Source: Candidatus Bilamarchaeum sp.
GTDB lineage: Archaea; Micrarchaeota; Micrarchaeia; Anstonellales; Bilamarchaeaceae
NCBI GenBank assembly: GCA_035455205.1
Contig: DATIFM010000024.1
Location: 5,959 to 69,958 of the forward strand
Reading direction: 5' to 3'
Length of the DNA: 64,000 bases
Numbering within the stretch: the stretch's first letter is position 1; each line of letters begins with the position of its first letter. Of this stretch, positions 19,850-55,619 are shown one piece after another. The notes beneath the pieces are model-generated. The model saw only the letters and a program-made list of their open reading frames with translations, did no database searches and was not told where the DNA came from. The position numbers and the translations under genes were made by a program.

Positions 19850-19975
19850 CGGGCCAGGTGAGATTTGAACTCACGACCTTCACCTTCCGCCTTTTGGGAA
19901 AAGGCGGCCCAAAACTGCCTCTCCATTTCCCGAAAATAGGACGGTGCCGCTCTATCCAAGCTGAGCTACAGGCCC
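19850..19975 (-). tRNA. tRNA-Arg (anticodon CCT) with one ~50-nt intron at 37/38
   Basis: Reverse complement reads GGGCCTGTAGCTCAGCTTGGATAGAGCGGCACCGTCCTA-[intron]-AGGTGAAGGTCGTGAGTTCAAATCTCACCTGGCCCG. One U-U mismatch in the acceptor stem and one in the anticodon stem. Confidence 0.8.
19887..19915. repeat. intron module copy d (forward relative to its minus-strand tRNA)
   Basis: The minus strand reads GTTTTGGGCCGCCTTTTCCCAAAAGGCGG. Confidence 0.85.
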
Positions 19976-38451: not shown

Positions 38452-41400
38452 ATGACCAGCGAAACTCGAAATCAGGAAAAAAAGGGGGCAGAGGGAGGCC
38501 AATCGCTTTCTCCGGCCCTTTCCCGCGCGAGGACTTTCAGCAGGCATTTCCGTCTTGTGGAATCCATTCTCCTCAGCGTTAGCTATATTAACGCCATTGG
38601 CCAGAATCAAGCCATGGCGGAGCCGATTCCCAGGCAACTCGATTCAGAAAGGATAAACCAGCTCAACCAGCTTGCCGAACAGGCTTTCGAGGCTTTCCGC
38701 TCGTACGTGATAAGCGGCTCCCAGTCGAGCAAGGACAAGTTCCTGCGCATCTGGAACGCCAACAAGGATGACGACGCGTTCTTCAACCGCTTCCAGGCAG
38801 GCATCACCGGGAGCCCGGAGGTTTTCCGCACGCTCCTCAACGCGTACAAGGCGCAGAAGGGCGGATACCCCTCGCCGGAGGAATTCATCGCCGCCATCCA
38901 GGCGTGCTATGCCGAGCTGCTGCGCCCGAGGAGCGAAAGGAACGTTTCGCAGATCACGCAGGACTACGGCCCGGCATTCGTGGCCGAGCTGGACCGGATG
39001 GTCACCGCCCGCTCAGTGCCGGTCCGCGTCCCGACGCAGGTCGATGACAGCACGATAAACGCGTTCCTCAACATGCTGCAGGTCAGCGGGACGAGGCCGA
39101 ACGCCCCGGCGCAGGAGCGCCTGCAGTTCATCATTGATGCAATCGACCAGCAGTTCGCCCTCCACAGCCGCGAGAACGCCTCAGGCATAGCGCAGGCCCT
39201 GCTCTATGCATATACGCTCATGAATGCCGAGGACCGCTCCCGCTTCTCCACCTGGCTCCGGACGATGAAGAGCGCCGACCGCACGGCCCTCGCGAACCAG
39301 ATAGTGACTTCCGTGGCGTCGAGGCAGATACGCCTTCCCTACGAACTCGTGCGGACTTCGTTCGAGGCATGGAAGCAGAACACCGAGAGGCAGAGGGCCG
39401 AAGTGGCGCGCCTCGAGGCCGAGCTGAGGCTCTATCCGCCGCATATCCGCGAGGGGACTCTCATTTCCCTGTCGCACTCGTTCGCGCAGGCGCCGACCGA
39501 CTATGCCCTCGAGAACATCGGGAGGCGCGTGGAATATGTCCGCAAAAGGATTGACATGCTTACGATGATGGCGACGCCACAGAGCAGGCAGCAGGCAGAG
39601 CAGCTCCGCGAGGAGCTCGGCCTGCTCACCACGTGGCTGGGCGGCCTCGGCATAACCGCGACAAGGCCCGAGGACGGCCTCAGCCGCCTCGCGGCAGGAA
39701 TCAACGCGCTCCAGAACTTCTACTATGCGATGAACCCCGAGCGCCCCGAGCTTGCCGACTACCTTTCGGCAGTCCAGTCGAACGGGACGCTTTCGGCAAT
39801 CTACCGTCGCTTCATACTCGCCGTGGATGCGCGCACTTCGAGGATATTTTCCGGCCTAAATGCCGACTCGCCCACCTTCGTTGTCCAGATGCAGGAGCGC
39901 ATTTCCAGCCGGGTGAGCGCGGCGCGCGTCCGGCGCGGGCAGGCGCAGTGGAACTCGGATTACTACCCGCTCCTCTCGCCCCTTTTTGCCCCCCCGCCCA
40001 CGACTTCCGGTGCGGTCCCGTCGAGCACATCATTCGACGCGCAGATGTACAACCGGACGTCCACGCTGGAGCCCCTGCTTGCGGTCGCGTTCCTCGATTA
40101 CCTCGAGGTCGCCGCCCGGAACGGCCTCACGGGCGCCCAGGAGCACCGGATTGTAGCGGCCACGGTGTCCCGCCTCTACGCGGTCAACCCGCTCCTCGTG
40201 GTGAAATATTTCGCGGCAGCAAAGAACCTCGCCACTATCTGCGAGGACAATTCCGAGGCGTTCCTCCGGGCGCTCACGGACATAGCCGCGAGGATATCGG
40301 TCGAGGCGGCCCCTGTCATATCCGGGGTTTCCCCCACGCAGATACTCCCGCTGAACGTCCGCCGCATCATCACGCGCCTCGCAAGCTCGATGGAAGCGAT
40401 AGCGCAGATTCCGAGGAGCTCGGTTGCCCAGTACGACCGGCTCAACCTCCTTGACGAGCGCCTCCAGATACAGCCGTACGCGCCGCACTCGATTGAGCAG
40501 AGGCCCTCAGGCTACATGCCGAACCTCCTTGTGAACCCGAACCAGCCCGCGACGCTCCTTCCGCCGTACCCGTTCCCGCAGTACCTCGTGACGCCCACGC
40601 CGACTTCGCCATTCACGGCAGGCGGGCTGTTCACTTCCCCGCCGACATACTCGGGCAACATCACGCTCCCGACTTTCTCGCCCATCGAGGTCTTCACCGG
40701 CGCGGCCTCGGTCGGAACTTCGATGCGCTATTACCTGAATCCCGAGCACCCCGTGGTCTCGATTTCGCAGTACCTTCCGGGCGTGAACATAAACGGCCTT
40801 AGCATGACGAGGCTCCTCAACGAGATACAGCGCGCCTTCATCCCGACGGACCGCCCCGACTACAGCAGGCAGATAATTTCCGGCGGAGGCGCGGGCGGGG
40901 TTATGGGCACGAAGCCCTCGGAAACCGACCCGTGGAATGTGGGCGGCGCCGGAATGGGGACGCTCATCACGCCTACGGGCGGGGCCTCGCTCGGCGGAGG
41001 GCGGCAGGACACGACGACTTTCGGAGGGCTCTCTGCGGTCGCGGTCCCGGTAGGCATCCCCGTGCTCGGCGGCCCATCGGCCGGCAGGAAAGTCACCGGC
41101 ATAGACAGCGCTGTCGCGGGAGTGCAGAGGCTGGACGACGGGACGCAGCAGGTCCTCCTAAGCGCAGTCCAGACCATGTGGGACCCGAACAACCCCAGCC
41201 AGATGCTCCTCTCGCTCAACCAGCAGCAGGATGCCCTCGGGACGAAATACATGACCGCGCGTTACTTCTTCATCGACAAGCAGGGCACGATTTTCGAGCT
41301 AAAGGGCGGGCAGAACGACCTCGTGGACGTGCTGAATTTCGCCGCGGGCTACGCCGACAACCTGTTCATGACGCCGACCACGAGCGCCTGGAACTACGAG

Positions 41401-43548
41401 CCCACGATACAGCGTGGAGGAGGCGTCCTCGCCGTAGATATCGGCAAGAGCCCATTCCTCGTGCACGCCCAGGCCGTGCCGTTCTTCCTCCCCGAGGGAA
41501 CCCCCCAGCCTTTCCTCCTCGAGTGGACAGGCGCGGGCGCGACCACGGTGGAAAACGCGTCGCCGCGCAGGACGACGATTTTCGAGGTCGGCCTCCCGGG
41601 CAAGATAATGCGCTTCCAGAACCCGATAGACCCCACGAGGACGGACAACTTCACGATGCAGGAAGTGGACTTCATGCTCAGGCGCGTGCAGAGGCCCGAC
41701 GCATGGGAGCTCAGAGTCGGCGGGGGCGGCGCGCAGACGCCCGTCGGCCCGGCGGCCAAGGGGGGAATATTCATAAGGACGCAGAGGCTGGAGCCGCCCA
41801 AGTCGTGGTTCGGCGGCGGCGCCTTCTACGAGGGCGGGGCGACGAACATGCAGGCAATCGCTCTCCTTTCCCAGTCTGCCGACGCCGCGGCTTACATCGA
41901 AAGCCTGCACCGCATCGGGGCGACTCTCTACGGGAGCCGTGAGAACTCGGACCGCCTCCTCGTGGGAGCGCTCGCCCATGTCGTTGCCCAGCTCCGCCAG
42001 GATGCGACGACAGACCCTGCGACCGGGCAGGTGACGCTCGGAAAGCTCAGGTACGACCAGACGTTCTACCGGTTCGTCGGCCTCCTCATCGGGCTGCGGA
42101 ACGCCGCGCGCCTCGACGTCGGGCGGTATTCCGGGCTCGACCAGATGATAAACGACTACCAGGCCATGGCGTCGCAGGTCGCGAACGACCCGTCGCAGGC
42201 GGCGGCGCTCACCCAGCAGTTCCAGGCGACTTACGCATCGCTGCTCCAGCAGGTCTTCGACAACTACCAGCTCGGCATCCAGATTAACCGCGACTTCTCG
42301 CTCGAGGCGACGCTCCTCATGCGCGAGCAGGCGAACAAGTGGACCGACCAGGTGCCTGACACGATTTCCGGGCGCGTCCTCTTCACGTGGAGCACAGGCT
42401 TCTGGCGCGCGTTCGCCTCGGTCCCGCTCCTTGGAGGGAGCACTTTCGGCTCTGCCGGAGCCCAGAGCCCCCTCGGGTATGTGCCGCCCGTACAGACCTC
42501 CACCACAACCACCGGGACCACGGGAACTGTGGCCCCTGTTACAACTGCCCCCCCGACGAGCGCGGGCATCATCGGAACCGGCCTCGGGGTGGACCTCGTG
42601 AACGACGTCTTCATGCAGAGGGCCGCGGCGGATGTCGGCCTCCTCGTTGCAAGGTATGAAGTTGCGCAGGCTGCAACGACCACCACGACCGGGGCCCCGC
42701 CTACGACCGGAGTCACATCCCCCACCGCGCCTACAGTGACAAACGCCCTCACCCCCGTCCAGCCCTGGTTCAAGGCGGGCTGGTTCGTGCAGGGCGCGGT
42801 CAGAATCTTCTCGAACGTGATGGAGGACTCCAACCAGTACCGGCGCCTCGTCACCGACTACGAAGGATACCTCGAGCGCATCCGCGACGGGCGCACCGAC
42901 GACATCACCGAAGCCGTGCGTTCGAAGATGTGCGACGCGATAGACACGAGCGCGTTCCCCCCCGAACTCGTACGGCGTATACGCTCCGGAGCGAGGGTTA
43001 CCCTCACGGCCGACCAGACGAGGCAGCTCGAGAGGGCACTCTGGAACGGCTGGTTCTACGACCGGAAATTCGAAGTCCAGCGCAAGTTCAACGGCCACCT
43101 CCGCGCGTTCCTTGCGGCGAGCGGATACGTTTACAACGACCGCACCTACTGGGACATAGGCACTTTCATCGAGAGCGTCGACCGCTTCAAGGCATACCTG
43201 ATAACCGCCCAGCGCGAGGAGCTCGGCGTGTTCGCGGGTGCCGAGGTCACCTCCGGGCGCGTGCGCGTCGCGGCCATGGGAGGCGGAACGAAAAGCGGAT
43301 TCGGGGCGGCCGCGTCAATCGGCTACAAAATTGGCACCCACACTGTCCCGGTAGAGATCGGCCTCTCGGGCTACGGGCGGAGCGCGGTCATACCGGATTA
43401 CTCCGCGCCATTCTTCATACCCCCCCAGCGCACGGGGACGCCGGAATTCGGCTCGCTGTTCTTCTACACCATCGGGAGCACGCGGGGAGTGTCGGGCCTG
43501 GCGCCGCCGAACCCGAACATCGCCCCCCCGATGAGATACAATTATTAG
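38452..43548 (+). CDS. giant protein A (1698 aa), predicted exported; paralogue of B; no recognised domain family
   Basis: - 5.1-kb uninterrupted frame with balanced composition.
- Leader ending 'NQAMA|EP'.
- 'AFRSYVISG' module, Gly-rich core and Thr-rich linkers.
- Beta-rich C-terminus ending 'PPMRYNY'. Confidence 0.88.
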   Translation: MTSETRNQEKKGAEGGQSLSPALSRARTFSRHFRLVESILLSVSYINAIGQNQAMAEPIPRQLDSERINQLNQLAEQAFEAFRSYVISGSQSSKDKFLRIWNANKDDDAFFNRFQAGITGSPEVFRTLLNAYKAQKGGYPSPEEFIAAIQACYAELLRPRSERNVSQITQDYGPAFVAELDRMVTARSVPVRVPTQVDDSTINAFLNMLQVSGTRPNAPAQERLQFIIDAIDQQFALHSRENASGIAQALLYAYTLMNAEDRSRFSTWLRTMKSADRTALANQIVTSVASRQIRLPYELVRTSFEAWKQNTERQRAEVARLEAELRLYPPHIREGTLISLSHSFAQAPTDYALENIGRRVEYVRKRIDMLTMMATPQSRQQAEQLREELGLLTTWLGGLGITATRPEDGLSRLAAGINALQNFYYAMNPERPELADYLSAVQSNGTLSAIYRRFILAVDARTSRIFSGLNADSPTFVVQMQERISSRVSAARVRRGQAQWNSDYYPLLSPLFAPPPTTSGAVPSSTSFDAQMYNRTSTLEPLLAVAFLDYLEVAARNGLTGAQEHRIVAATVSRLYAVNPLLVVKYFAAAKNLATICEDNSEAFLRALTDIAARISVEAAPVISGVSPTQILPLNVRRIITRLASSMEAIAQIPRSSVAQYDRLNLLDERLQIQPYAPHSIEQRPSGYMPNLLVNPNQPATLLPPYPFPQYLVTPTPTSPFTAGGLFTSPPTYSGNITLPTFSPIEVFTGAASVGTSMRYYLNPEHPVVSISQYLPGVNINGLSMTRLLNEIQRAFIPTDRPDYSRQIISGGGAGGVMGTKPSETDPWNVGGAGMGTLITPTGGASLGGGRQDTTTFGGLSAVAVPVGIPVLGGPSAGRKVTGIDSAVAGVQRLDDGTQQVLLSAVQTMWDPNNPSQMLLSLNQQQDALGTKYMTARYFFIDKQGTIFELKGGQNDLVDVLNFAAGYADNLFMTPTTSAWNYEPTIQRGGGVLAVDIGKSPFLVHAQAVPFFLPEGTPQPFLLEWTGAGATTVENASPRRTTIFEVGLPGKIMRFQNPIDPTRTDNFTMQEVDFMLRRVQRPDAWELRVGGGGAQTPVGPAAKGGIFIRTQRLEPPKSWFGGGAFYEGGATNMQAIALLSQSADAAAYIESLHRIGATLYGSRENSDRLLVGALAHVVAQLRQDATTDPATGQVTLGKLRYDQTFYRFVGLLIGLRNAARLDVGRYSGLDQMINDYQAMASQVANDPSQAAALTQQFQATYASLLQQVFDNYQLGIQINRDFSLEATLLMREQANKWTDQVPDTISGRVLFTWSTGFWRAFASVPLLGGSTFGSAGAQSPLGYVPPVQTSTTTTGTTGTVAPVTTAPPTSAGIIGTGLGVDLVNDVFMQRAAADVGLLVARYEVAQAATTTTTGAPPTTGVTSPTAPTVTNALTPVQPWFKAGWFVQGAVRIFSNVMEDSNQYRRLVTDYEGYLERIRDGRTDDITEAVRSKMCDAIDTSAFPPELVRRIRSGARVTLTADQTRQLERALWNGWFYDRKFEVQRKFNGHLRAFLAASGYVYNDRTYWDIGTFIESVDRFKAYLITAQREELGVFAGAEVTSGRVRVAAMGGGTKSGFGAAASIGYKIGTHTVPVEIGLSGYGRSAVIPDYSAPFFIPPQRTGTPEFGSLFFYTIGSTRGVSGLAPPNPNIAPPMRYNY

Positions 43549-44001: not shown

Positions 44002-44051
44002 CGTTTCGATAGATTTTTATTAGATGCCCGATTTTACTCATCGGGATTCTT

Positions 44052-44471
44052 ATGCTGGAACTTATGCAGGTAATGCTGAATGGCGCAGAAGTAAAGAAGC
44101 TCTCAAACGACGTCCCGAAAGAAGTCTCGGTCAACCTCGATGTCGAGAAGCTGACCGCACGCACCCCCGACACCCTCATTGTCGAGTTCGTCTATTCAAT
44201 CGAATACAAGCCCAGCGTAGGCATGATGAAGTTCATGGGCGAAGCGCTCTGCCGGGACAGCCCGGACAACGTGAAGAAGATACTCGCAGAATACAAGAAG
44301 ACCAAGATGATTTCTTACGAGATGGGAGCGAACGCGATAAACATGATAAACGCGAACGTCGGCATGAACGCGATTTTCGTTTTGAGGCCGTTCGGGCTCA
44401 TCCCGCACTTCCTTCCGCCGCCGATTTCGGTCCCTCCGGTCGAGGAAAAGGCCCCGGCGAAGAAAAAGTAG
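44052..44471 (+). CDS. small protein, SecB-like pattern (paralogue 2)
   Basis: 139 aa. Collinear with paralogue 1 ('LIVEFVYSIEY', 'MMKFMGEALC', 'GANAINMINANVGMNAIFVLRPFGLIPHFLPPPISV', Lys/Pro tail). Confidence 0.7.
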   Translation: MLELMQVMLNGAEVKKLSNDVPKEVSVNLDVEKLTARTPDTLIVEFVYSIEYKPSVGMMKFMGEALCRDSPDNVKKILAEYKKTKMISYEMGANAINMINANVGMNAIFVLRPFGLIPHFLPPPISVPPVEEKAPAKKK

Positions 44472-44481
44472 CTGCCAGTTT

Positions 44482-44517
44482 GTCAACCCCTTCGGGGTTG
44501 ACCATGTCCTTTTTTTT
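44482..44517 (+). terminator. hairpin plus T8 terminator of the A / small-paralogue operon
   Basis: GTCAACCCC-TTCG-GGGTTGAC at 44482-44502, followed by TTTTTTTT at 44510-44517. Confidence 0.6.
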
Positions 44518-44583
44518 AATAATTATTTGTTCCTACTGCTGCCAAAAAAATTAATTAAAAAAAGACCGGTCAGTATGAACCCC

Positions 44584-44687: not shown

Positions 44688-47600
44688 CTACCACTGGAAC
44701 TGGCCGTAGAGCATGAAGCCCCAGCCCCCCGGGAACGTCCGTATCTGGTCGCGCCATGACGGGAGCGCCTCTGGCCTCGAAGTCTCGCCCGGAAGCACCG
44801 GCCAGCTGCCCGTGTACGCGGTTCCCGTAAGCTGGTAGCGCTGCGGAAGGATGCTCGTGCGGGGCTGCCTCGTGTATTCCCAGCTGATGCCGGCGCGGCC
44901 GATGAAGTCGGTCCGCTCGCCTGCCGGGGAAGTCGTTCCGCCCACCGTAGTTGACGTGAATTCCCTGCGCTGCTCGGCGCCACCCTCGAAGAAGAAGTGG
45001 ACCGCCATCCTGTCCCCGGCCACGAGGTCCGCCCTTGCCCAGGTTATGCCCGCGCCGCCCGTGGTCCTCGAAAGAGTCCCGAGGTCCGAGCACTGCCCGC
45101 CGCTTAGCGTCTGGCAGACGCGCGAAAGCTCGTCGGGGTTGTTGAACACGCTGTCGGAGGCGAAAACCACCTGCCTCGTGGCCCTGTTGAAGAACACGTA
45201 AGAGAACAGCTGGTCGCTCATCGTTGCGGTGTTTATCGCCTGGAACCTGTGCGAGAGCGTTATCGTCCACTGGTCCCACCTCTCGTTCCCGTACTCCCTC
45301 ACGCCATAGAACGCCCCCGCGAGGAGGTCGTGCCTGTGGTCCTGGAGCACCTGGAGCAGTCCTCCGACGCTCCAGTTCCCCGCCGGGTTCCAGATGTCGA
45401 GGCCCGAGCCGGTCAATGGGAGCGTCACGCCGCCCATGAACCTTACTGCCGTGAGCGCGCGCAGCCTCCTGTCGCCCGAGCATACGAGGCTGTACTGGTC
45501 CCCGTCCTGCCTGACTTCGACCCTCGTCACTCCCCGGCCTATCGTGTGGCCCTGCTGCTGCCACTCCGCGTAATCGTCGTCGTCGCCGATGACGAGCGAG
45601 CCCCTCGCTTCAGGGCGGTCGGCGACCGGAGTGTGGAGGACATAATATGTGGTCCTTCTCTGGGTGCGGCCCTCCGGGCTGGCAAGGTGCGTGCCGAGCA
45701 GGACGTCATACCTTTCGGGGCTGAGGCCTATCCTTGAATCTGAATTCGTCACCGAGACGAGGACGTCCAGCATGTTCTGCTCGAATATCCTCTGGAGCTC
45801 GGGGCCGGTCACATCCGCCCGTGCAGGGGGCTGGGTGATGCTGGCGCCGGCTATGCGGTTCTCCGCGCTCCCGCTCCTCTGCCCGCGGGTGCCAAGCTCG
45901 CGCTCAAGCCGGTCCTGAGGAAGCAGTATCCAGTCCAGGTCCGTGCTCCTCCTTTCGACTAGGTCCACGAGGTCCCTCGTGTACTGGCGCTCGAGGCGCG
46001 CCCTGTCGGGCGACGCGCGCCGGAGCTCGGTGAATATGTCTATCACGGCCGAGGCCGCGCCGCTTCTCCTGAGGTTGAGTATCTGCGTCGCCACTGCATC
46101 ATCCTGCCCGCGCCTCCTCGTTAGCTCTGCCGTGACTTCGCTCTCTGGCCGGATTGCCCAGCTGAGGCCGTCCCTTGCCGCGAGCACCGAGTCAACGGCT
46201 TCCCTGCCGTACACGCGTGCGAGCCTCTGCCTGTCGAATGCGGTGCTTCCGAGGTCGCGGTAAATGTTGCGCAGCGCGTCGCCCTGCGTCACCGTCCGCC
46301 TCACCGTCGCGGTCCTTTCATAGCGCTGGAGGTCTATCGAAGGCCAGTCCAGGATCCCGAATCCGGTGTAGAGGTCGACGTACGGCCTGTACTGGCCCCT
46401 GTTCACCTCGAAGCCCCCGGTCGTTCCCGGGTTCTCGCTGATGACGAGGGGCGAGTAGCCGTATGCGTGGCTCATTATGTCCGCGTACCACCTCGTCGGC
46501 CTTCCGAAGAGGAAGAGCGCGTAGAGGTTGCCGTACGAGGTCTGGTCCCCGGTCCACTGGCCGGCCCCGACGACGTATGCCCTGAGCCTCTCGCCGTCAT
46601 AGCCATATGCAATCGAGAACCTCCAGATGTCCCTGTTGAGGTCGTCGCGCAGGGAGCGGGAAAGGTTCTGCAGTATCTGGGCCTCGTTCGCCGGGTTCCT
46701 CTGGATTTCGAGCATGGCCTGGTCTATCCTCTCGTAGAGCCTGCTGAAGCCCGGGACGCGCTGGGCGCCCACGAGTATGCCGTGGCGCTGGGCCCAGTAC
46801 ATGAACATGGCCGATGCAAAGTGCTGCTCCGGGTTTCCGCCCGGGCCGCTCGCCTCCTGCCTGTAGCCGGTGGGCGAAGTCGGGTCGCGGACTGTCCAGT
46901 CCTCCATCCTCGCGTACATGTAGCTTCCCGCCACGAGGTAGCCCGTGTCCCTCGCGTCGTCTTCCGACCAGTGGTAGAAGCTCGCGAGCACGGTGTGCAT
47001 CCTCGCGTATATCTGGTCGGCCTGCGTGTCCACTGCGCGGAATTCGCGCAGAAGGTCAATATCGTTGTACGCGCCTGCGAGGCCGTAACCGACTCTCCTG
47101 TATCTAGACTGCGGAATCTCGTGCCTCCACCTGGCGCCGACTATGGGCGTCGCGCCGTCCCTGGACCTCTGCGCGCCTCCGACCACGCGGAGCTCCATCT
47201 GGTGCTCCATCGGGTCGATGCGCATCCTTCTCCACATCAGCTCTCCGGTCGCCGTTGCCCAGCGGACGTCGCTTATGTGCGTCCTGTCCGCGGGGTCGAC
47301 GGTGGTGAGCTGGGCCCCCCTGTAGAAAGCCGCATAGACGTCCCTCGCCCTTCTGTCCCGGACGAGGTCTGTGACGGCAGTCCCGACTGCCTGTTCTATG
47401 TGCACCGGGTCCATCGTGCTCATGTTGCGGACTAACTGGCCAAGGGCGAGCGCCGAGAAGCTGTCGCCGCCTGTTCTTGGAACGGTGAACCCCACTGCCG
47501 CGCCGTCGAAACCGCCGGCGGCCGAGTCGCCGCTAAGCATCCCGCGTCCGACGGTCCTTGCCCCTGCCAGCACCTGCTGGGTGTTCACGCCGCCGTAAAG

Positions 47601-50600
47601 GTAGTTCAGGAGCTGGGCGTTGCTGTCGAAGCCGTAAGCAAGCTGGTATATGTTGCCTTCGGCGGTGACGAAATACAGCCTCGAGCGCAGCGCGTCCCTG
47701 GGCTGCTGGACGACGTTTCCTCCCGCGTCCCTGAGCTCCGGAAGGTGCTCGCCAGTAACGAAGAGGAGCATGTCCGTGGAGTTCTGCCTCGCTATCCTCG
47801 AATACGTTTCGAGGAGGCCTGCGGTCCTTTCGCGCGTTACCGTGTCCGTGGTGGTGGTCGGGCCGCCGGGCGTCTGCGTGGTGTCCGTCCGTGTGTCGGC
47901 CCTCTCGTAATGGAACTCGTTCCTGTGCCTGATTATGCCCCTCGCCTCGTCGGCTCCGCCTATCGGGATGACGCCCGCAACCGGATACGGGAGGCCCGCG
48001 GCCTGGCCCGTGACATCGACCTGGTCGGTCGTGGTCGTCTGCCTGTTGCCTTCTGGCCCCGCCGCCGTAGATGCGCGCTGCCATGTCCCGAGCCCTCTCG
48101 CGCCTCCGCTAAGTGTGCGCCCGCCTGCTGCGGCCCCGAGGCCGCCGCGCTGGGTGACTGCGGTGCCCGAGCCCTCTGCGCCATACATGAAGCCGGCTTC
48201 GCCGAACGCGCTCAGCCAGTAGTCGCTGTAGTTGATGGGCATCGGCCCGAACAGCTCGTTTATCCTCCTGATTATCGTGGAAGGCCCGAGCGTCCCTATC
48301 CTGTACTGGGGCGGGACCCTCTGCCTGAACATCCTTGCCGCGGGGGGCCGGAGGCCGTCGTACATCCTGCTGAACAGGTCGTCGGCGCCCGAAAGGACGC
48401 TCAACCCGCCCGGCACCGGGAGCCTGAGCCTCGTGTCCGAGAACGGCCTCGGGAGGAGGGACGGGAATCCGCCCTGCTGGCCGTAAAGCTGGGGAAGCGG
48501 GTCGAGCCCCTCGCCGTTCCACCATCCGGGCCTGTACCTGTAGAGCCTCGGGTCGAGGTATCCTTCATCGGTCCTCGGCTCGGGAACCAGCCTCAATTCG
48601 TCCTCGAGCTGGTTGTGGTCGAAAGAACTTACGATTTCAGGCAGCCGATCGCCAATCGCCTGGAAGACGCGCAGGAAATACTGCCTGTTGAGGAGCGTGC
48701 TGTACGCGATTTCCCTCAGGCCGGATTCGTACCTCTGCACGAAGATTGCGTTGAATGCCTCCATCGCCGCGACGAGCGTACGCTCGTCGTGCGAAGCCGC
48801 GATGAACGCCGGGAGCACCTGCGTGAGGTACGGCCCCACGAGGTAAGGGTCCCTCTGCGAGATGATGAGAATCGAGTTCATCATCGCCTGCGCGGCCCGC
48901 CTGTTGAACGCGGACGCGCCCCCTCCGATTTCAGGTATCGCGATTCCCATGTAGAGCGCGTCGAGTATCGAGAGGTTCTGCCTCAGCCCCGTGACCGCGG
49001 CGTCCGTGTAGTCGCCCGTAGTCGGGTGGAAGTTCGCGTCCTGCCTCGCCTGAAGATACTCGGTCTCGACCTGGTTGTAGAATTCCCTTCCCCTCTGGAT
49101 GAGCTGCCTGCCGGCCTCGGAATTGAAGAACCTCGCGAGCTCCTCGGGGCTGTCGATTCCGTCAGCCGCCCACGCAGGGAGGTCTATGCCCCTGTACCTG
49201 CGTGCAAGCTCCCGGAGCCTCTGGCTGAAGAGCGGCAGGTTGATGTACTGGTTGAAGAGGTAGTCGTTCGAGCCGAACAGCTGGCGGTAGAGCGTGACCG
49301 CCTGCGTGAAGTTCGTGCCGAGCGTGTCCGTTGCGCTCGCAAGGCCGAGCGAGCTCCGGAGCGTCCCGAAAATCCTCGGCAGGTTGTCGGCCATGAAGCC
49401 GAAGTTCGTCATGAACGTCGCCCTGCCCGCGCCCGGGCCTGCCTCGTATCCGGCATTCAGCTGCTCAAGGAGCGGCGCGGGGAGCGCGAGCATGTCGTCG
49501 AGCCTCGCAGACGGGCTTTCAAGGAACCCGAGCTGGGTCATGTTGGCCGAGACCCTGTCCACGAATGCCCTTCCGTATGCGCCGCGGAGCTCGTTCAGCC
49601 TCTGCTCGAAATTCTCAAGGTCCGCGCGCTGGGCACCGCGCGCCGGCCTCGTGCGGAGCACGGCGTAGACCTGCCCCATGTCGCGGAACATCGCGTCGTC
49701 CTGGCGCCTGTAAGCCCTCTGAAGTGCGAGCACGGTCCGGGAATATGCCCCGGGGTATGCGGCGGTGATTGCGCTCCTCACGGCCTGCGGAAGGCGGAGC
49801 ACGTCCTCCACGTTCGCGCCCGAAGTCCCGAGCGCCGTGAGGTTTGCCCTCTGCGCTTCCACGGCCGCAACGAAGTCCGCTCCGAAAAGCGCGACCATCG
49901 TTTCACGGTCCTCGCCCGGCTGGGGGTTCGTTATGGCCCTGTAGCACCTGATGACTATGCCCGCGTAAAGCGCGTTCTCCCCCTGGCGCAGGTCGCGGAC
50001 TGTAATGGATGGGGAATCAAGGAACCTGAAGTTCGGGGCCTGCCTCTCCATGAGGGAAACGAACCTTTCGCCGTAAAGGCCGACCAGGACAGCCCGCGTG
50101 TCGGTCCCCCTGCGCTGCGTGAAAGTGTAAGTGCGCTGGACGCCGGCGAAGAAATTCGGCTCGTCCATGCTGACAATCATGTCATAGAGGTTCGAGTCCG
50201 CGCGCCTGAGCACGGCCGAGACGACGTCGCCGACGACCTGCTGCTTCTCGGGGAAGCGCGACATGCCCCTGTACCATGTGAGGAGCGTGTTCATAGTGCC
50301 CTGGTCGGTTCCGCTCGTGGTCGCCCCGGGCGGAGCCCTCGCGAGGTCGCCGCCGGTCTCGGCAAGGTGGATCATGGCGAATGCCATCTCGACCGACCTG
50401 CGCAGGTCGGCGGGGCTCAGCATCTGGTCCATCAGCCTCTGCTGCTCGTCAACGAGCCTCTGGAGTTCCCCGGGGTCCGAAGTTTCTGCGGCCCTCAGCC
50501 TGATGTCCTGGTTCCTCCTGCTCCACTCGGTTATCCACCGCTCGAGCAAGGGGCGCACCGGCTCCATCGCGCTGTGGCGCAGCTGGCCCCTGAGGTTCTC

Positions 50601-53090
50601 GAGGTCGCCCTCGTACCTTCTTGCCCTCGACTCGATCTCGGCCCTGCGCGCGAGCGCGGCTTCCGGAGCTATCGATGGCACTGTGCCGGCCTGCCTCACG
50701 GCGACCGGTGCAGTGAATATGGTGCCGAGCGAGTCCCTCGCGTCCGCCTGCGCGATGCCGCCCCTGCTCGAGGCCTGCCTCGCGCGCGCAACCGCGTAAA
50801 CGAACTGCACCGGAGTGTATGGATAGAACCTGCCGCGGAGCGCCCTCGCGTATTCGTCTGTCCTGTCGACGAGCTCGCGCTCGATATCGGCCTGGCTCCC
50901 GGAGAGCCACTGGAGGTTGCTCCTGTTGGTCTGCACGTACTGGACGAGCTCTGCCCCGTATGCTGCCTCGAGCCTCGAGCGGTCGGCGCTCGGGCGTCCG
51001 AGCTCGGCGTAAATGTCGCGGAGGGCCGCTGAAAGCGTGCCGACGCTGAAGCCGAACGTCCTCGTGATAGACCTGACCGTCTGGTCGCTTCCCATCCTCG
51101 ATGTCATCTGGCTCTCTATGTCCTCCACCGGGCGCAGCAGCCAGCTGAACCCGTCGAGGTTGCGCGATACGTGGTCGAACAGCTCCTGCCCGTAATTCTG
51201 AACGAGCTGCTGGCGCCTTGCGCGGAGTGCCTGTATCTCCGTGTATGCCCTCGAAAGGACCGCGCCGCCGTTTGTCGGCACTCTCGCGCGGAGCGAAACC
51301 GCTATCGGGTCCGGCGTCCTTCCGCCGGCCCTCCTGTCCAGCTCGCGCTGGACGTCCGCAGGCGTGCCTGCGAGCCATCCCAATGAGTCGAAATTCGCCT
51401 CGATGATGTCGAGCGGGGCGTCCGCGAGCGCCCTCCTCCTGACTCTCTCGTCTACGAGCGCGGAATACGTTTCCGAGACCGCCCTGCTCATCGGCGGGGG
51501 CCTGTCCGTTCCCTGGACGTTGGGAAGCCTTATCCTCGAAAGCCCGGCCGCCGTCGGGTCCTCGAGCCTCGCCCTCCGCGTTATCTCGGTGCTGATGTCG
51601 GCCTCGGGGCGCAGCAGCCAGCTGAGGTTCCTCATGTTCTGCTGGACGAGAGTCACGAGAGCGCTGTCATAATCCGAATTGAGCCTGGTCATGTTCGGGC
51701 TCTGCCTGCTCAATTCGACGTAGATGTCGCGGAGCGCGATGGGGAGGATATTCCGCTGGTAGCTCCTCGAGAGCGATAAAAGCGTCCTGTTCTGCGTGAT
51801 TTCCTGCGTGTAGAGCCTCTGGAACTCGGTCCAGAAGACGGTGTTGTTCTCGACTGTCGGGACCGAGAGAGTCCCGTTCGTGACCATCGCCAGCCTGCCG
51901 CCCAGAATCTGCGAGAAGTTGTCCGCGGCGCTCTGGCTTCCAGTGGAAAGTACGTCGCGCACGAGGCGCACCGCCCGCCCTGCCATTCCGCGCGCCACTA
52001 TCTGGAGCAGCGGGTCCACGACGTCCGCTCCCTCGCGGTCCCTCAGCCTCTGAATCTCGTCGACATTTCCGCTCTGCGCCGCGCGGTAGATGTCGCTCAC
52101 CGCCCGGGCGAACTCGTTCGGGTCCGTCCCGTGGTGGCGCGTGTTGTAGGCCTGCGCCACCGTCGCGAGGCCTGAGCCGCTGTCGCGGAATATCCTCGCT
52201 GTGAATTCCCTCGTGAATGCGGTAGTGAAAGTCTGGGACGTGTTCGCGTCGAAAATCCCCCTGAAGGCGTCCATCATCTGGGTGTCGCCGCTCAGCATGA
52301 ATTCCCGCAGGAACACGACCGACCTCCTTGCGAGCTCGTTCGGCATGTTCTCGGACACGACCTGCGTGAGCCTCTCGCCGTACCTCGCGACGGTCTCCTC
52401 CCTCGCGGTCCTTTCGAGCTCGGTGCGCGCGGCATCCTCTATGGACATGCCGCCCGTGACCGACTGCCTCATCCTCGCGAGGTCGGAGTCGCGCTGGGGC
52501 TCGCGCCTCCCGAGGTCGCGGTACCTTTGCGCCAGAGCCTGCACCCTCTCGTCCGATGCCGTCGCGGTCTGGAGCCTCGAGCGGACATTGAACACCGCCT
52601 CGATGAAGTCCGTCATCACCACGGGCTCCATCTGCACTCCCCATATGCGGTCGCGGTCCCTCGTGTAAGCGTCGAGATAAACCCTGAACTGCCTGTTTCC
52701 TGAGAGCGAGTCCATCTGGCTGAACAATTCGCTCATGAATTCGCGGTTCTCGCTGAGGCCGACCCCCCTGTACTGGCGGTTGTAGATTTCCCAGAAACGC
52801 GTCCTGTTCGCGGGGTCCCCGCTGATGACATAATCCCTGAAGGCGTTCGCAGCTTCCCTCGCCTGTCTTTGCAGTCCCTGTACATCCTCCCGTTCAGCTG
52901 GTGGTCGCGGCTGTGCCATAGCAACACTTCCTCCGAGATTGTTTAAATTCGTTCCGCTCGTTAACGTCAGGATTCCGGCGACAGCCGATGCTGTGAACTC
53001 GTTGAAGTATCTCCTGAAAACCGAGCGCCTCCTCAACTCGAAGCTGCTGCGGCGCTCGTGTTCGGTCTCTTTCTGCCTCTGGCCGGACAT
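44688..53090 (-). CDS. giant protein B (2800 aa), predicted exported; paralogue of A; internal ~55-aa repeats
   Basis: - 8.4-kb uninterrupted frame; ATG preceded by GGAGGAG.
- Leader ending 'SVAMA|QP'.
- Three 'FR(D/E)(Y/F)(V/M)(I/L)SG' modules and nine ~55-aa repeats.
- Beta-rich C-terminus ending 'MLYGQFQW'. Confidence 0.88.
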   Translation of the reverse strand: MSGQRQKETEHERRSSFELRRRSVFRRYFNEFTASAVAGILTLTSGTNLNNLGGSVAMAQPRPPAEREDVQGLQRQAREAANAFRDYVISGDPANRTRFWEIYNRQYRGVGLSENREFMSELFSQMDSLSGNRQFRVYLDAYTRDRDRIWGVQMEPVVMTDFIEAVFNVRSRLQTATASDERVQALAQRYRDLGRREPQRDSDLARMRQSVTGGMSIEDAARTELERTAREETVARYGERLTQVVSENMPNELARRSVVFLREFMLSGDTQMMDAFRGIFDANTSQTFTTAFTREFTARIFRDSGSGLATVAQAYNTRHHGTDPNEFARAVSDIYRAAQSGNVDEIQRLRDREGADVVDPLLQIVARGMAGRAVRLVRDVLSTGSQSAADNFSQILGGRLAMVTNGTLSVPTVENNTVFWTEFQRLYTQEITQNRTLLSLSRSYQRNILPIALRDIYVELSRQSPNMTRLNSDYDSALVTLVQQNMRNLSWLLRPEADISTEITRRARLEDPTAAGLSRIRLPNVQGTDRPPPMSRAVSETYSALVDERVRRRALADAPLDIIEANFDSLGWLAGTPADVQRELDRRAGGRTPDPIAVSLRARVPTNGGAVLSRAYTEIQALRARRQQLVQNYGQELFDHVSRNLDGFSWLLRPVEDIESQMTSRMGSDQTVRSITRTFGFSVGTLSAALRDIYAELGRPSADRSRLEAAYGAELVQYVQTNRSNLQWLSGSQADIERELVDRTDEYARALRGRFYPYTPVQFVYAVARARQASSRGGIAQADARDSLGTIFTAPVAVRQAGTVPSIAPEAALARRAEIESRARRYEGDLENLRGQLRHSAMEPVRPLLERWITEWSRRNQDIRLRAAETSDPGELQRLVDEQQRLMDQMLSPADLRRSVEMAFAMIHLAETGGDLARAPPGATTSGTDQGTMNTLLTWYRGMSRFPEKQQVVGDVVSAVLRRADSNLYDMIVSMDEPNFFAGVQRTYTFTQRRGTDTRAVLVGLYGERFVSLMERQAPNFRFLDSPSITVRDLRQGENALYAGIVIRCYRAITNPQPGEDRETMVALFGADFVAAVEAQRANLTALGTSGANVEDVLRLPQAVRSAITAAYPGAYSRTVLALQRAYRRQDDAMFRDMGQVYAVLRTRPARGAQRADLENFEQRLNELRGAYGRAFVDRVSANMTQLGFLESPSARLDDMLALPAPLLEQLNAGYEAGPGAGRATFMTNFGFMADNLPRIFGTLRSSLGLASATDTLGTNFTQAVTLYRQLFGSNDYLFNQYINLPLFSQRLRELARRYRGIDLPAWAADGIDSPEELARFFNSEAGRQLIQRGREFYNQVETEYLQARQDANFHPTTGDYTDAAVTGLRQNLSILDALYMGIAIPEIGGGASAFNRRAAQAMMNSILIISQRDPYLVGPYLTQVLPAFIAASHDERTLVAAMEAFNAIFVQRYESGLREIAYSTLLNRQYFLRVFQAIGDRLPEIVSSFDHNQLEDELRLVPEPRTDEGYLDPRLYRYRPGWWNGEGLDPLPQLYGQQGGFPSLLPRPFSDTRLRLPVPGGLSVLSGADDLFSRMYDGLRPPAARMFRQRVPPQYRIGTLGPSTIIRRINELFGPMPINYSDYWLSAFGEAGFMYGAEGSGTAVTQRGGLGAAAGGRTLSGGARGLGTWQRASTAAGPEGNRQTTTTDQVDVTGQAAGLPYPVAGVIPIGGADEARGIIRHRNEFHYERADTRTDTTQTPGGPTTTTDTVTRERTAGLLETYSRIARQNSTDMLLFVTGEHLPELRDAGGNVVQQPRDALRSRLYFVTAEGNIYQLAYGFDSNAQLLNYLYGGVNTQQVLAGARTVGRGMLSGDSAAGGFDGAAVGFTVPRTGGDSFSALALGQLVRNMSTMDPVHIEQAVGTAVTDLVRDRRARDVYAAFYRGAQLTTVDPADRTHISDVRWATATGELMWRRMRIDPMEHQMELRVVGGAQRSRDGATPIVGARWRHEIPQSRYRRVGYGLAGAYNDIDLLREFRAVDTQADQIYARMHTVLASFYHWSEDDARDTGYLVAGSYMYARMEDWTVRDPTSPTGYRQEASGPGGNPEQHFASAMFMYWAQRHGILVGAQRVPGFSRLYERIDQAMLEIQRNPANEAQILQNLSRSLRDDLNRDIWRFSIAYGYDGERLRAYVVGAGQWTGDQTSYGNLYALFLFGRPTRWYADIMSHAYGYSPLVISENPGTTGGFEVNRGQYRPYVDLYTGFGILDWPSIDLQRYERTATVRRTVTQGDALRNIYRDLGSTAFDRQRLARVYGREAVDSVLAARDGLSWAIRPESEVTAELTRRRGQDDAVATQILNLRRSGAASAVIDIFTELRRASPDRARLERQYTRDLVDLVERRSTDLDWILLPQDRLERELGTRGQRSGSAENRIAGASITQPPARADVTGPELQRIFEQNMLDVLVSVTNSDSRIGLSPERYDVLLGTHLASPEGRTQRRTTYYVLHTPVADRPEARGSLVIGDDDDYAEWQQQGHTIGRGVTRVEVRQDGDQYSLVCSGDRRLRALTAVRFMGGVTLPLTGSGLDIWNPAGNWSVGGLLQVLQDHRHDLLAGAFYGVREYGNERWDQWTITLSHRFQAINTATMSDQLFSYVFFNRATRQVVFASDSVFNNPDELSRVCQTLSGGQCSDLGTLSRTTGGAGITWARADLVAGDRMAVHFFFEGGAEQRREFTSTTVGGTTSPAGERTDFIGRAGISWEYTRQPRTSILPQRYQLTGTAYTGSWPVLPGETSRPEALPSWRDQIRTFPGGWGFMLYGQFQW
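45879..46277 (-). repeat. B repeat copies R8-R9 (protein-level ~55-aa repeat)
   Basis: 'ALRNIYRDLGSTAFDRQRLARVYGREAVDSVLAARDGLSWAIRPESEVTAELTRRR' and 'AVIDIFTELRRASPDRARLERQYTRDLVDLVERRSTDLDWILLPQDRLERELGTR'. Confidence 0.8.
49476..51743 (-). repeat. B repeat copies R1-R7 (protein-level ~55-aa repeat array, aa ~450-1205)
   Basis: Examples are 'ALRDIYVELSRQSPNMTRLNSDYDSALVTLVQQNMRNLSWLLRPEADISTEITRR' and 'ALRDIYAELGRPSADRSRLEAAYGAELVQYVQTNRSNLQWLSGSQADIERELVDR'. Five further, more divergent copies follow the same pattern. Confidence 0.8.
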
Positions 53091-53246: not shown

Positions 53247-55619
53247 TCAGCCCGGCTGTATGACGCGCCTTCTCGAGCCCGGCTGGGGCTCGACCTGCGT
53301 CGGCGGCGGCTCCTGCCTCTGCTGCGGAGGAGCCTGCGGCCTGATGTTGATGGACTGGCCCCAGTCCCCGACGTTCGCGTTCGGGTTCGCCATCCTCCAT
53401 GAGTAGACTGCCATCGCGGCAAGGAGCCTCGGGTCCGTTACGCCGGTCGGGTCGTAGTCGTCCCTGCCCATGCTGAAGCCCTGCCTGTAGAGGAGCGCCA
53501 AATCCTGCCTGAGCCTCGTGTAGACGTCGCCGCTCCTCTGCGCCTCCTGGTTGATGAAGCGGGCCATCGCCCTCATCACCACCCGCCTGTCGGCCTCGGA
53601 AGTTGTCCCGCTGAGGCGCGTTGATTCGCGCGCGACTCCGGTGAAGTCCGAGTTGTCGCGGCAGAACTGGAGGAATGCGGTGTTCGAGTGGAGGTAGTCG
53701 TTGAAGACCCTGTCGAACGCGTCCCTGATGTCCGTGCGGTTCAGCGCTCGGAGCGCGTCCTCGATTGAAGAGTATCCCTGCGGGAGGTTGCGCATTATCG
53801 TGACAATCCCGGCCGGCCTGCCTCCCTGCACGTTCTGGTAGAGCTCGGTCGCGAGGTTGCGCCAGTTCCTGTCGGCAAAATCCTGGAGCGCGCTCCTCGA
53901 TTCGGCCGCGCCTATCGTCCTTCCGAAGGCTGCCTGCGCCACCTGCCTCGCGATGACGTCCCTTCCGGCGTCGCTCGGGTGCAGGTGGTCGGGGTCGGTC
54001 TCCCTCTCGTACTGGGCCCTGAGCCTCGGCGGGTTGCCCTCGCCGATTAGCGCGGCCGTGTCAATGAAAACTACGTTCCCGTCCGCAGTCGCCTGCTCCC
54101 TGAGCCACTGGTTGAACTGCGTCGTCCTGCGCTGGAGGTCCGAAGTGGAGGTGGACGCGCCGGCCCACGGGAGGAGCCCGAGTATGACAACGCGCATGTT
54201 CCCGTCCCTCGCTGCGCGGATGAACTGGGCGTACCTGCCTTCGAGCTGCTCGACCGTCCCGCTCCCTATCCCGTTCACTCCCGCGTGTATCACGACAACG
54301 TTGTAGGGCGGCTGGTGGCCAAGGACGTCCCGGTTGAACCTGCTCCGCACGTGCGAGAGGTCCTCCCCGGAGACCCCGTAGGAATCCACGGCCGCGTCCG
54401 GAGTCGCCCCCGCGCCCTCGCGCAAAAGCCTCTGCAATGTGGTCCCTATCCTGTTGCCGGCTATGAGCGAGTCTCCCACGACGGCAACGCGAGGCACTGT
54501 TACTGTCGGGGCCTGAGGCTGGACCGGCGCGGCGGTCCCCTCGAGGGGAACCACCTGCGGCGCTGCCCACTGGTCTATCTGGCCATCTTCCCTTCCCCGG
54601 CCGCGCTCCGGATGCTCCTGCGTCCATCTCCTTATGTAGAGCGAAGACGCGGTGACGGTGTCTGCGTCCATCGCGCCGCCGAGGTTCATGGATATGAATG
54701 CGAATCGCGTCCTTTCATCCGGCTGCCTGCCTGAAGTCGCGGTGAACGTCCGCGCCTCATGTATGCGCGCCCTCACCCTTTCGGCGTTCGGAAGCTGTGC
54801 GACTTCGGCCCTGTACCTTGCGTTCGCGTCGTTCGGCGCGACGAAGCCGAGCAGGAAATACCTGACGTACATGTCCGCCGCGCGGATTATTTCGGCGTTC
54901 GCCTGCTCGCTCAGCATCTCCGGCCTCCCCGGCTCGGTGAGGAACGACTGGAGCTGAACGAACTGCGGGAAGTATTCGGCCTGCGTCGCGGCCACCGATG
55001 AAAGGTAGAGCCTGAACGCGGGAATCTGGTAGAGCGAGTTGAATACCGCTATCGTCGTGTCCCGCTGGTTGGCGGTCCTCAATGTGCCCCTCTGCAAATC
55101 CGACGAAAGGTACTGGTTGAGGAATTCCCTGTTGGTGTGGAGCGTGGAAGCAGCGGCGACCGAGCGGCGCTCGTCCCTCGCGGCTTCGCGGAGCTGGAGC
55201 GTGACCCACGGAATCACTTCAGTCGCCTGCGTCGGGAAAGTGCGCCTCGGCGTGGCTGCGCGCACGTCGCGCCCTCTCCCCTCGTCGCGGCGCTCCTCCC
55301 TTCTTTCCCTCCTCGGGGGTGGCTCGCGCCTCGCAGGCTCGTCGCGCCTCTCTTCCCTCCGCTGGGGCTGGGCAGGCTGCGCCTCCGGATTGAGCTGGCG
55401 GTAAATCGTCCTCGCGGCTCCGTTCACGTCGGTCCGTCCGACGTCAATCCCTGCGCCGTCGAAGAAGTTGCGGACGTTGGCGAGGGCGGCGTTAATCGCG
55501 CCGCGTATGTCCGCCTCGGACATCCCTGCCCGCACCGACACTCCGGACGACCTGGAAGTGCCTCCGGCCACTATGACTATCGTGTTTCCCTGAAGCCGAA
55601 CTTCTGCCATGTTTTTCAC
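53247..55619 (-). CDS. 790-aa multidomain protein C with a central SGNH/GDSL hydrolase domain
   Basis: - SGNH blocks: I 'VAVVGDSLIAGN', II 'SYGVSGED', III 'VIHAGVNG', V 'DPDHLHPSDAG' (aa ~376-566).
- Arg/Glu-rich spacer at aa 80-125.
- Flanking helical modules related to A and B.
- The start is either GTG 55619, overlapping the D stop, or ATG 55610. Confidence 0.85.
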   Translation of the reverse strand: MKNMAEVRLQGNTIVIVAGGTSRSSGVSVRAGMSEADIRGAINAALANVRNFFDGAGIDVGRTDVNGAARTIYRQLNPEAQPAQPQRREERRDEPARREPPPRRERREERRDEGRGRDVRAATPRRTFPTQATEVIPWVTLQLREAARDERRSVAAASTLHTNREFLNQYLSSDLQRGTLRTANQRDTTIAVFNSLYQIPAFRLYLSSVAATQAEYFPQFVQLQSFLTEPGRPEMLSEQANAEIIRAADMYVRYFLLGFVAPNDANARYRAEVAQLPNAERVRARIHEARTFTATSGRQPDERTRFAFISMNLGGAMDADTVTASSLYIRRWTQEHPERGRGREDGQIDQWAAPQVVPLEGTAAPVQPQAPTVTVPRVAVVGDSLIAGNRIGTTLQRLLREGAGATPDAAVDSYGVSGEDLSHVRSRFNRDVLGHQPPYNVVVIHAGVNGIGSGTVEQLEGRYAQFIRAARDGNMRVVILGLLPWAGASTSTSDLQRRTTQFNQWLREQATADGNVVFIDTAALIGEGNPPRLRAQYERETDPDHLHPSDAGRDVIARQVAQAAFGRTIGAAESRSALQDFADRNWRNLATELYQNVQGGRPAGIVTIMRNLPQGYSSIEDALRALNRTDIRDAFDRVFNDYLHSNTAFLQFCRDNSDFTGVARESTRLSGTTSEADRRVVMRAMARFINQEAQRSGDVYTRLRQDLALLYRQGFSMGRDDYDPTGVTDPRLLAAMAVYSWRMANPNANVGDWGQSINIRPQAPPQQRQEPPPTQVEPQPGSRRRVIQPG

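Follow-up and report, generated by a model that had tools for sequence, protein, structure and literature searches.

How a very large exported protein may be held at the surface of an archaeal cell, and whether a β-barrel of the kind that bacteria place in their outer membrane could serve this purpose, is the question raised by a locus of Candidatus Bilamarchaeum sp. (assembly GCA_035455205.1, contig DATIFM010000024.1). The stretch of DNA that was analysed, a window of 64,000 nucleotides, encodes on its reverse strand a protein of 2800 amino acids (aa), here called B, whose C-terminus had been likened in an initial annotation to the barrels of bacterial outer-membrane proteins (OMPs). Transmembrane β-barrels are considered characteristic of the outer membranes of bacteria, mitochondria and plastids, and we know of no characterised β-barrel outer-membrane protein in archaea. 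On the basis of structure prediction and family-wide sequence comparison we tentatively read the C-terminal module of B as an OMP-like β-barrel of independent origin, which would anchor a giant protein, exported by the Sec route, through its C-terminus in a hydrophobic layer of the envelope.

Protein B and its C-terminal domain

The layout ascribed to B by the initial annotation, namely a signal peptide, a huge passenger, a C-terminal β module and a terminal aromatic residue, proved to be real and conserved. The motif NLNNLGxNxAMAQP is kept at the N-termini of B orthologues, and an N-terminal signal motif is common to B and to protein A, which is encoded close by (BLAST E 3e-8), with AMA followed by QP or by EP. 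In each of the two proteins a long n-region rich in Arg and a stretch of moderate hydrophobicity precede the motif NLNNLGxxxAMA; from this pattern both N-termini may be read as cleavable Sec signals with cleavage after AMA. In the passenger of B a helical repeat of about 56 aa, with a consensus like ...RDIYxELxRxxxDRxRLExxYGxxLVxxVxxNxxxLxWLxxxxxDIExEL..., occurs at least seven times; when one repeat served as BLASTP query against B, the other copies were recovered at E 1e-13 to 2e-5. Some copies lie in the N-terminal third of the protein and others just ahead of the C-terminal domain, and A has a single weak copy of this repeat. A hydropathy scan detected no 19-residue window of transmembrane-helix strength in either B or A; a PGF-CTERM or helix anchor was ruled out for B owing to the absence of a hydrophobic helix, and no recognisable anchor other than the β module was found in this protein. 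B as a whole returned zero matches from Pfam and NCBIfam, and its last 350 aa had no Pfam match even at E <= 10.

Full-length orthologues of B in the loci that were fetched show 43-56% identity to it and occupy a syntenic position, the conserved order being a giant gene C, a gene for a 790-aa SGNH/GDSL protein and B, then one or two small open reading frames (ORFs) on the opposite strand, and then Trm56 and an ABC transporter. P0035 (1926 aa), a much more distant member, shares this neighbourhood, its locus including Trm56, phosphoglucomutase and DJ-1. B is present in single copy, is syntenic and evolves slowly; it is a core gene and no fast-evolving adhesin.

A search with the last 350 aa of B against a word-indexed database of 5.8 billion proteins returned three and then seven proteins, and an exhaustive search with a hidden Markov model (HMM) against 1.84 billion cluster representatives gave 38 matches. 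The full-length members among these 38 are proteins of 1.7-3.1 thousand aa that carry the domain at their C-terminus, the remainder being short entries and apparently fragments; no stand-alone protein occurs among the 38 clusters, and the domain is restricted to the C-terminus of giants and to Micrarchaeota. All named database members of the family bear the title 'hypothetical protein [Candidatus Micrarchaeota archaeon]', and full-text literature searches for β-barrels and giant proteins of Micrarchaeota or DPANN archaea found no description of the family. The C-terminal module of B is an undescribed, lineage-restricted conserved domain. Its strongly conserved motifs include GNERWDQWT, RTTGGxGxTWAR and HFFFEGG, and M343 (in the numbering of the last 350 aa) is nearly invariant in the family.

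The aromatic residue with which B ends, to which the initial annotation had drawn attention, is under selection, as 13 of 13 genome orthologues end in W (...GW[SW]xM[LG]xxxxxW-stop) and the residues before this W vary. By manual count, about 20 of 26 distant family members have W or F at the C-terminus or at most three residues from it. The terminal strand also carries the residues of a β-signal, with W at position 0, I/F/V at -2, L/I/F at -6, F/I/L at -8 and W at -10, and with Gly at -4 instead of -5.

Predicted fold and likeness to membrane barrels

The region modelled comprised the last 350 aa of B (aa 2451-2800), to which the strand numbering given here refers. A shallow AlphaFold2 run with four sequences was unreliable, with a predicted local distance difference test score (pLDDT) of 43, and was discarded, while an alignment of 25 sequences (20-59% identity) yielded a model with a pLDDT of 82.5, a predicted template modelling score (pTM) of 0.66 and 140 residues at pLDDT >= 90. 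The five models of this run had pLDDT values of 72.9-82.5, and in the model with 82.5 most strand blocks lie above 85. Ten strands of 7-20 residues are predicted (99-105, 122-133, 137-150, 153-170, 174-191, 222-238, 243-261, 272-291, 300-310 and 340-349), with tight turns between most of them, and ten antiparallel strands imply that both termini lie on the same side of the module. The strand positions agree between the four-sequence run, the 25-sequence run and the positions of family indels, and all ten segments that had been picked out from the sequence of B in the initial annotation coincide with predicted strands, the ORF and peptide positions likewise being as given there. The possibility that the meander is a modelling artefact, and that the region is β-rich but truly of another fold such as a sandwich or a multi-sheet arrangement, is favoured by the pLDDT of the four-sequence run, by the alignment depth of 25 and the pTM of 0.66, and by the weakness of the structural matches discussed below. 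Given the 140 residues at high pLDDT, the values reached by all five models and the agreement of the strands between shallow and deep runs, family indels and the earlier sequence-only segmentation, we attach only a very slight chance to such an artefact.

Comparison of the model with the PDB by Foldseek returned a top 50 composed almost exclusively of integral β-barrel membrane proteins, among them Dot/Icm porin I, YncD, PqqU, FadL, OprC, BamA, Sam50/Tom40, FhaC, CymD, OmpT, OmpG and MOMP. The highest query-normalised template modelling (TM) scores (0.35-0.40) were obtained with 22-stranded TonB-dependent transporters, and the best match in a viral structure library was a Legionella-type major outer-membrane protein (E 6e-3). 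A confident sandwich or solenoid, which the initial annotation had named as the outcome that would speak against a barrel, was not obtained for B; the model is a ten-strand meander with OMP barrels as its neighbours. In terms of fold class the predicted module is OMP-like, clearly neither a sandwich nor a solenoid, and it is no close copy of a solved barrel.

The connections between the predicted strands display the asymmetry of short turns and long variable loops that is typical of OMPs. On the side of the termini the turns measure 3, 3, 4 and 8 aa, with a standard deviation (sd) in length of 0-1.8 over the family, whereas the loops on the opposite side measure 16, 30, 10 and 29 aa (sd 3.6-7.5), with one tight turn of 2 aa also located on this loop side. 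The 30-residue loop, which bears the sequence VCQTLSGGQC, ranges from 9 to 31 aa over the family and is predicted to contain helices at 196-200 and 202-211; its C209 is invariant among 15 aligned close homologues, and the Cys pair may form a disulfide. A per-position profile of the family further established that nine strands have 4-6 alternate positions which are essentially charge-free and are bounded by W/Y/F and R/D, the bounding aromatics being W123, Y145, W158, F166, W234, F279, W287/Y289, Y302, W340 and W350. In the simplest hairpin register the charge-free positions of strands 1-6 would align on one face, and the opposite face in this register would carry the polar residues that are most conserved, with D138-R165 and R225-E256 as pairs. 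The α/β junction subdomain that precedes the meander is kept across the family and is predicted with block pLDDT values of about 76-95, except for its disordered first ~10 residues. In the distant members P0035, P0039 and P0041 this subdomain is duplicated, as read from their sequences.

From these features the following arrangement may be proposed. B, conserved and nearly devoid of lysine, would be a giant protein that a Micrarchaeota archaeon exports by the Sec route to its envelope, and its last ~250 residues would fold into a ten-stranded antiparallel meander of OMP type, with a sheet that would most likely be closed into a barrel. The chain would enter and leave the module on the same side, that of the short and fixed turns, while the opposite side would present the long variable loops, including the one with the conserved Cys pair, and the last strand would end in the conserved aromatic residue. 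The module would thereby fix a helical-repeat passenger of ~2,450 aa in a lipid membrane, resulting in an autotransporter-like layout with a module that would have arisen independently of the bacterial OMP families. The module is probably an envelope anchor, and it may plausibly insert into lipid.

A number of observations weigh against a lipid-embedded barrel. The alternation of hydrophobic and polar residues that the initial annotation had seen in B did not exceed chance, since the period-2 hydrophobic moment of its last 229-270 aa gave z = -0.5 to -1.0 against 500 shuffles on two scales, albeit in a test of low power, as of the control sequences OmpA reached z = 3-4 and OmpX failed at z = 0-1. 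A lipid-facing hydrophobic face would be expected to be more variable than a polar one, but conservation did not differ between the two faces (entropy 2.22 vs 2.08, p = 0.29). The difference in hydrophobicity between the faces of strands 1-5 is small, Gly and Ala abound on the putative outer face, and the runs LL, FY, YVFF, FFF, FVF and WGFML are apolar on both faces. The Foldseek matches in the PDB are weak (best E 1.2e-3, none <= 0.001; TM-scores 0.2-0.4; root mean square deviation 10-20 Å), and TM-scores and deviations in this range indicate that the model of B differs from a canonical 8-, 10- or 12-stranded OMP. Sequence searches with the B domain in Pfam, NCBIfam and the PDB, including a PDB profile search, found no match. 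Moreover, four distant members carry a tail of 13-30 aa beyond the last strand and a free C-terminal aromatic residue is therefore not universal, thereby suggesting that the aromatic, being selected but not universally terminal, has a structural role rather than that of a strict recognition tag. In distant orthologues (P0035, P0039 and P0041; L018) the tail is rich in Ser, Thr, Pro and Gly. To our knowledge the β-barrel assembly machinery (BAM) and Omp85 are not known in archaea, and no Omp85 or POTRA protein is encoded within the 64-kb window. Finally, among cultivated relatives both A_DKE ('Ca. Micrarchaeum harzensis'; bioRxiv 10.1101/2021.04.28.441871) and the DPANN archaeon ARM-1 (PMC11329633) have an S-layer over one membrane.

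The lack of excess period-2 amphipathicity, the many positions that are apolar on both faces, Foldseek scores under significance and the S-layers of cultivated Micrarchaeota (10.1101/2021.04.28.441871; PMC11329633) would also suit a soluble extracellular β-barrel or curved sheet, which would dock B to the S-layer, to protein C or to itself and would resemble OMPs in geometry only. The strongly conserved motifs of the domain and its Cys pair point in the same direction, and in the model one face of the sheet could lie beneath the two helices and the junction subdomain. We regard a soluble module as the main rival, somewhat less likely than the lipid-embedded anchor, as there is almost no soluble β fold among the top neighbours in either the PDB or the viral library, as the loop asymmetry, the charge-free belts bounded by aromatics and the terminal aromatic are traits of membrane barrels, and as B has no other anchor. 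A lipid-embedded anchor, which is the reading we tentatively prefer, can be extended to an integral β-barrel that is native to Archaea and independent of BAM, located in a second, outer lipid layer of this Micrarchaeota clade or in a host membrane, and forming together with C, itself anchored in the membrane, and the SGNH protein a conserved, lysine-free trans-envelope or cell-to-cell tether; this extended form we consider somewhat unlikely.

Comparison with known envelope and secretion systems

B resembles Type Va autotransporters in that a Sec signal with a long charged n-region and a very large passenger (~2,450 aa) precede a C-terminal all-β module of ~250 aa with an aromatic end. It differs from them in lacking a match to the Pfam Autotransporter family, in having about ten strands in the AlphaFold2 prediction as opposed to 12, and in a predicted α/β junction subdomain rather than the pore-filling helix of autotransporters. 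The passengers of autotransporters are typically β-helix, while that of B consists of helical repeats, and the organism that encodes B is an archaeon, for which neither an outer membrane nor BAM is known. Owing to the lack of homology, the differing number of strands and the absence of BAM from the 64-kb window, membership of B in the Type Va autotransporter family or in the bacterial OMP superfamily (MBB clan) is unsupported and a functional analogy alone stands.

With monomeric OMP barrels such as OmpA, OmpX, OmpT, FadL and the porins, the module of B has in common a long antiparallel meander with short turns on the side of the termini and variable loops, aromatics at both ends of charge-free alternate positions, and a terminal W or F. 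In contrast to these barrels its structural similarity is under significance, sequence homology is lacking, amphipathicity is weak and the putative outer face is Gly/Ala-rich, while the domain occurs exclusively at the ends of giant proteins. Regarding β pore-forming toxins and secretins, no MACPF, aerolysin, leukocidin or secretin Pfam domain was found in B, and whereas oligomeric pores are built from one or two hairpins per subunit, the predicted module would supply a ten-strand meander per chain.

For Ignicoccus and Altiarchaeales an archaeal outer lipid layer has been established or proposed, and one was formerly also proposed for Micrarchaeota/ARMAN, which were initially interpreted as two-membraned (bioRxiv 10.1101/2021.04.28.441871); unlike Ignicoccus and Altiarchaeales, those cultivated Micrarchaeota that have been examined to date possess an S-layer instead of a second membrane. 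For Altiarchaeales, mention has been made of a possible PopA-like porin relative (PMC12228718). B may also be compared with the SPEARE proteins of Nanohaloarchaeota, as it is likewise very large, exported and encoded in a small symbiont genome; such proteins are presumed to mediate host contact, and giant proteins of nanohaloarchaea have been discussed (PMC10266531). However, no sequence relationship to SPEARE proteins was detected, the family of B occurs in Micrarchaeota only (38 clusters) and B is a conserved syntenic core gene.

Gene neighbourhood, lysine avoidance and protein A

The archaeal origin of the locus, which the initial annotation had taken as its premise, was found to be correct, as follows from the archaeal gene content of the window and from homologous loci of Micrarchaeota. 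Archaeal markers encoded in the 64 kb are aTrm56, FttA/aCPSF1, the small subunit of DNA polymerase D and geranylgeranyl reductase, with further genes for a proteasome subunit, a tRNA-intron endonuclease and HMG-CoA synthase. Homologues are present in 13 genome loci, all of them from metagenome-assembled genomes, ten titled Micrarchaeota or Micrarchaeia and three labelled only as archaeon. The window is a chromosome segment of a DPANN archaeon of the phylum Micrarchaeota. A bacterial contaminant or a recently transferred island was excluded because the archaeal synteny is kept across related loci. The G+C content is 0.61-0.68 in the giant-gene region (38000-64000) as compared to 0.55-0.62 in the housekeeping part (1-38000), and since synteny is conserved the higher value fits a shift from Lys to Arg, not recent transfer. 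In the housekeeping part a 126-nt tRNA match at 19850-19975 (-) (Rfam, 41.8 bits), at which ARAGORN makes no call, appears consistent with an intron-containing archaeal tRNA; the gene for the tRNA-intron endonuclease is located at 10313-11488.

Upstream of B, the SGNH gene is kept in nine related loci (including L004, L006, L010-L013, L015 and L016) and overlaps gene C by four bases (Table 1). The SGNH protein lacks an obvious signal peptide from its listed start. C has a hydrophobic region resembling a transmembrane helix around aa 1070-1200, with a hydropathy peak at aa 1074-1092, and searches with its sequence in Pfam, NCBIfam and the PDB found no match. In L016 the SGNH gene is preceded, on its upstream side, by the C-terminal end of a C homologue, and in L018 a 1628-aa gene occupies the position of C. 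The array is set apart by its lysine content, with 2 lysines in the 2800 residues of B, 1 in 790 of the SGNH protein and 12 in 2794 of C, while A has 30 in 1698. Fifteen housekeeping proteins of the window contain 7.4% lysine, and in the giant proteins the arginine content is doubled. The B orthologues of all 13 species likewise have only 0.2-0.5% K; distant members of the family, for example P0036 and P0037, are rich in K. This avoidance of lysine marks the C-SGNH-B array as one functional unit under a common constraint.

The conservation of this array, with a hydrophobic segment in C only, would also agree with a device that tethers two cells, in which the module of B would insert into the host membrane, alone or as a multimer, or would form an oligomeric pore, C would stay in the symbiont membrane and the SGNH protein would remodel the host envelope. 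Micrarchaeota are host-dependent, and ARM-1 has in its envelope, where it contacts the host, a barrel-shaped complex of 21 nm that is uncharacterised (PMC11329633). The lysine avoidance of B, the SGNH protein and C recalls the 'lysine deserts' that have been discussed as a means of evading lysine-directed tagging and proteolysis (PMC10665810), and the fact that the best TM-scores were to 22-stranded transporters would fit a weakly curved partial barrel in need of partners. Such a device nevertheless appears quite improbable, as similarity to pore-forming toxins or secretins is absent and, provided the termini remain outside the host, the side with the Cys-pair loop would point into the host cytoplasm; in addition B is slowly evolving, single-copy and syntenic, unlike a diversifying host-range factor.

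Beyond the 3' end of B, both small ORFs encode a Lys/Pro-rich tail, and at least one copy stands beside B in every related locus; searches of protein families and the PDB found no match for either. A 176-aa ORF at 44024-44554, which overlaps the 139-aa ORF, was rejected as it lies in the wrong frame; the tblastn matches of the two frames overlap.

Table 1. Location of gene B, its parts and the neighbouring features within the 64,000-nucleotide window
Feature	Position	Strand	Basis and remarks
Gene B	44688..53090 (including stop codon)	-	ORF and translation; 2800 aa, ends ...GGWGFMLYGQFQW-stop
B, putative signal peptide, aa 1-59	52914..53090	-	Arg-rich n-region, moderately hydrophobic h-region, then NLNNLGGSVAMA followed by QP
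B, repeat copies at aa 452-506, 548-584, 610-665, 688-744 and 1057-1095	50859-51737 and others	-	BLASTP
B, two ~56-aa repeat copies, aa 2272-2402	45885..46277	-	BLASTP
B, predicted α/β junction subdomain, aa 2451-2548 (residues 1-98 of the modelled 350)	45447..45740	-	AlphaFold2
B, predicted OMP-like β module, ten long antiparallel strands, aa 2549-2800	44691..45446	-	AlphaFold2, Foldseek
B, long variable loop, residues 192-221 of 350, two predicted short helices and Cys pair	45078..45167	-	AlphaFold2
B, last strand and terminal aromatic, WGFMLYGQFQW-stop	44691..44723	-	Orthologue alignment
SGNH/GDSL-domain protein, 790 aa	53247..55619	-	Pfam Lipase_GDSL_2, E 8.5e-19; directly upstream of B
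Gene C, at least 2794 aa, reaches window edge	55616..64000	-	Translation; first gene of the C-SGNH-B array
Small ORF, 143 aa	43570..44001	+	Adjoins the 3' end of B; every Micrarchaeota locus has a tblastn match at this position
Further small ORF (139 aa), paralogous to the 143-aa ORF	44052..44471	+	Translation, tblastn
Gene A, 1698-aa paralogue of B	38452..43548	+	Translation; ends ...PPMRYNY-stop
A, C-terminal Gly/Ala-rich β-like region, ends RYNY-stop	43096..43545	+	Segments located

Proteins A and B have in common their signal peptide, a module at the N-terminus and a motif in the mid-region. Gene A lies as an insertion between Trm56 and the small ORFs and was found solely here and in L015 (63% identity). 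The segments which the initial annotation had listed from its C-terminus do exist, as does the RYNY ending, which is kept in both relatives found (63% and 86% identity), but the suggestion that this region is of the same style as that of B did not gain support from homology. The comparison of the A C-terminus with the B domain was non-significant by BLASTP, by hhalign, whether run with one sequence or with a three-sequence profile, by hmmsearch with the family HMM and by sensitive BLASTP against the C-termini of the family, the single recurrent lead being a match of 'KAGWFVQGAVRIFSN' in A to 'NWSVGGLLQVLQD' in strand 1 of B (E 0.04-0.2). Searches with A in Pfam, NCBIfam and the PDB gave no matches, and a homologue search with its C-terminus returned one protein, too few for a profile. 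The period-2 moment of A is marginal (z about 1.5-1.8, a value reached by 23-38 of 500 shuffles). One may speculate that a small barrel could accommodate its short Gly/Ala-rich segments, which number roughly eight.

An OMP-like module thus ends the largest exported protein of Micrarchaeota, and it does so lineage-wide. The module of B offers a testable handle on the composition of the DPANN envelope, on the anchoring of giant proteins without a helix or sortase, and on the attachment of symbiont to host. Should the module prove to be soluble, it would still represent an undescribed conserved domain that marks a core three-gene giant-protein operon, to which about 19 kb of the genome is devoted.

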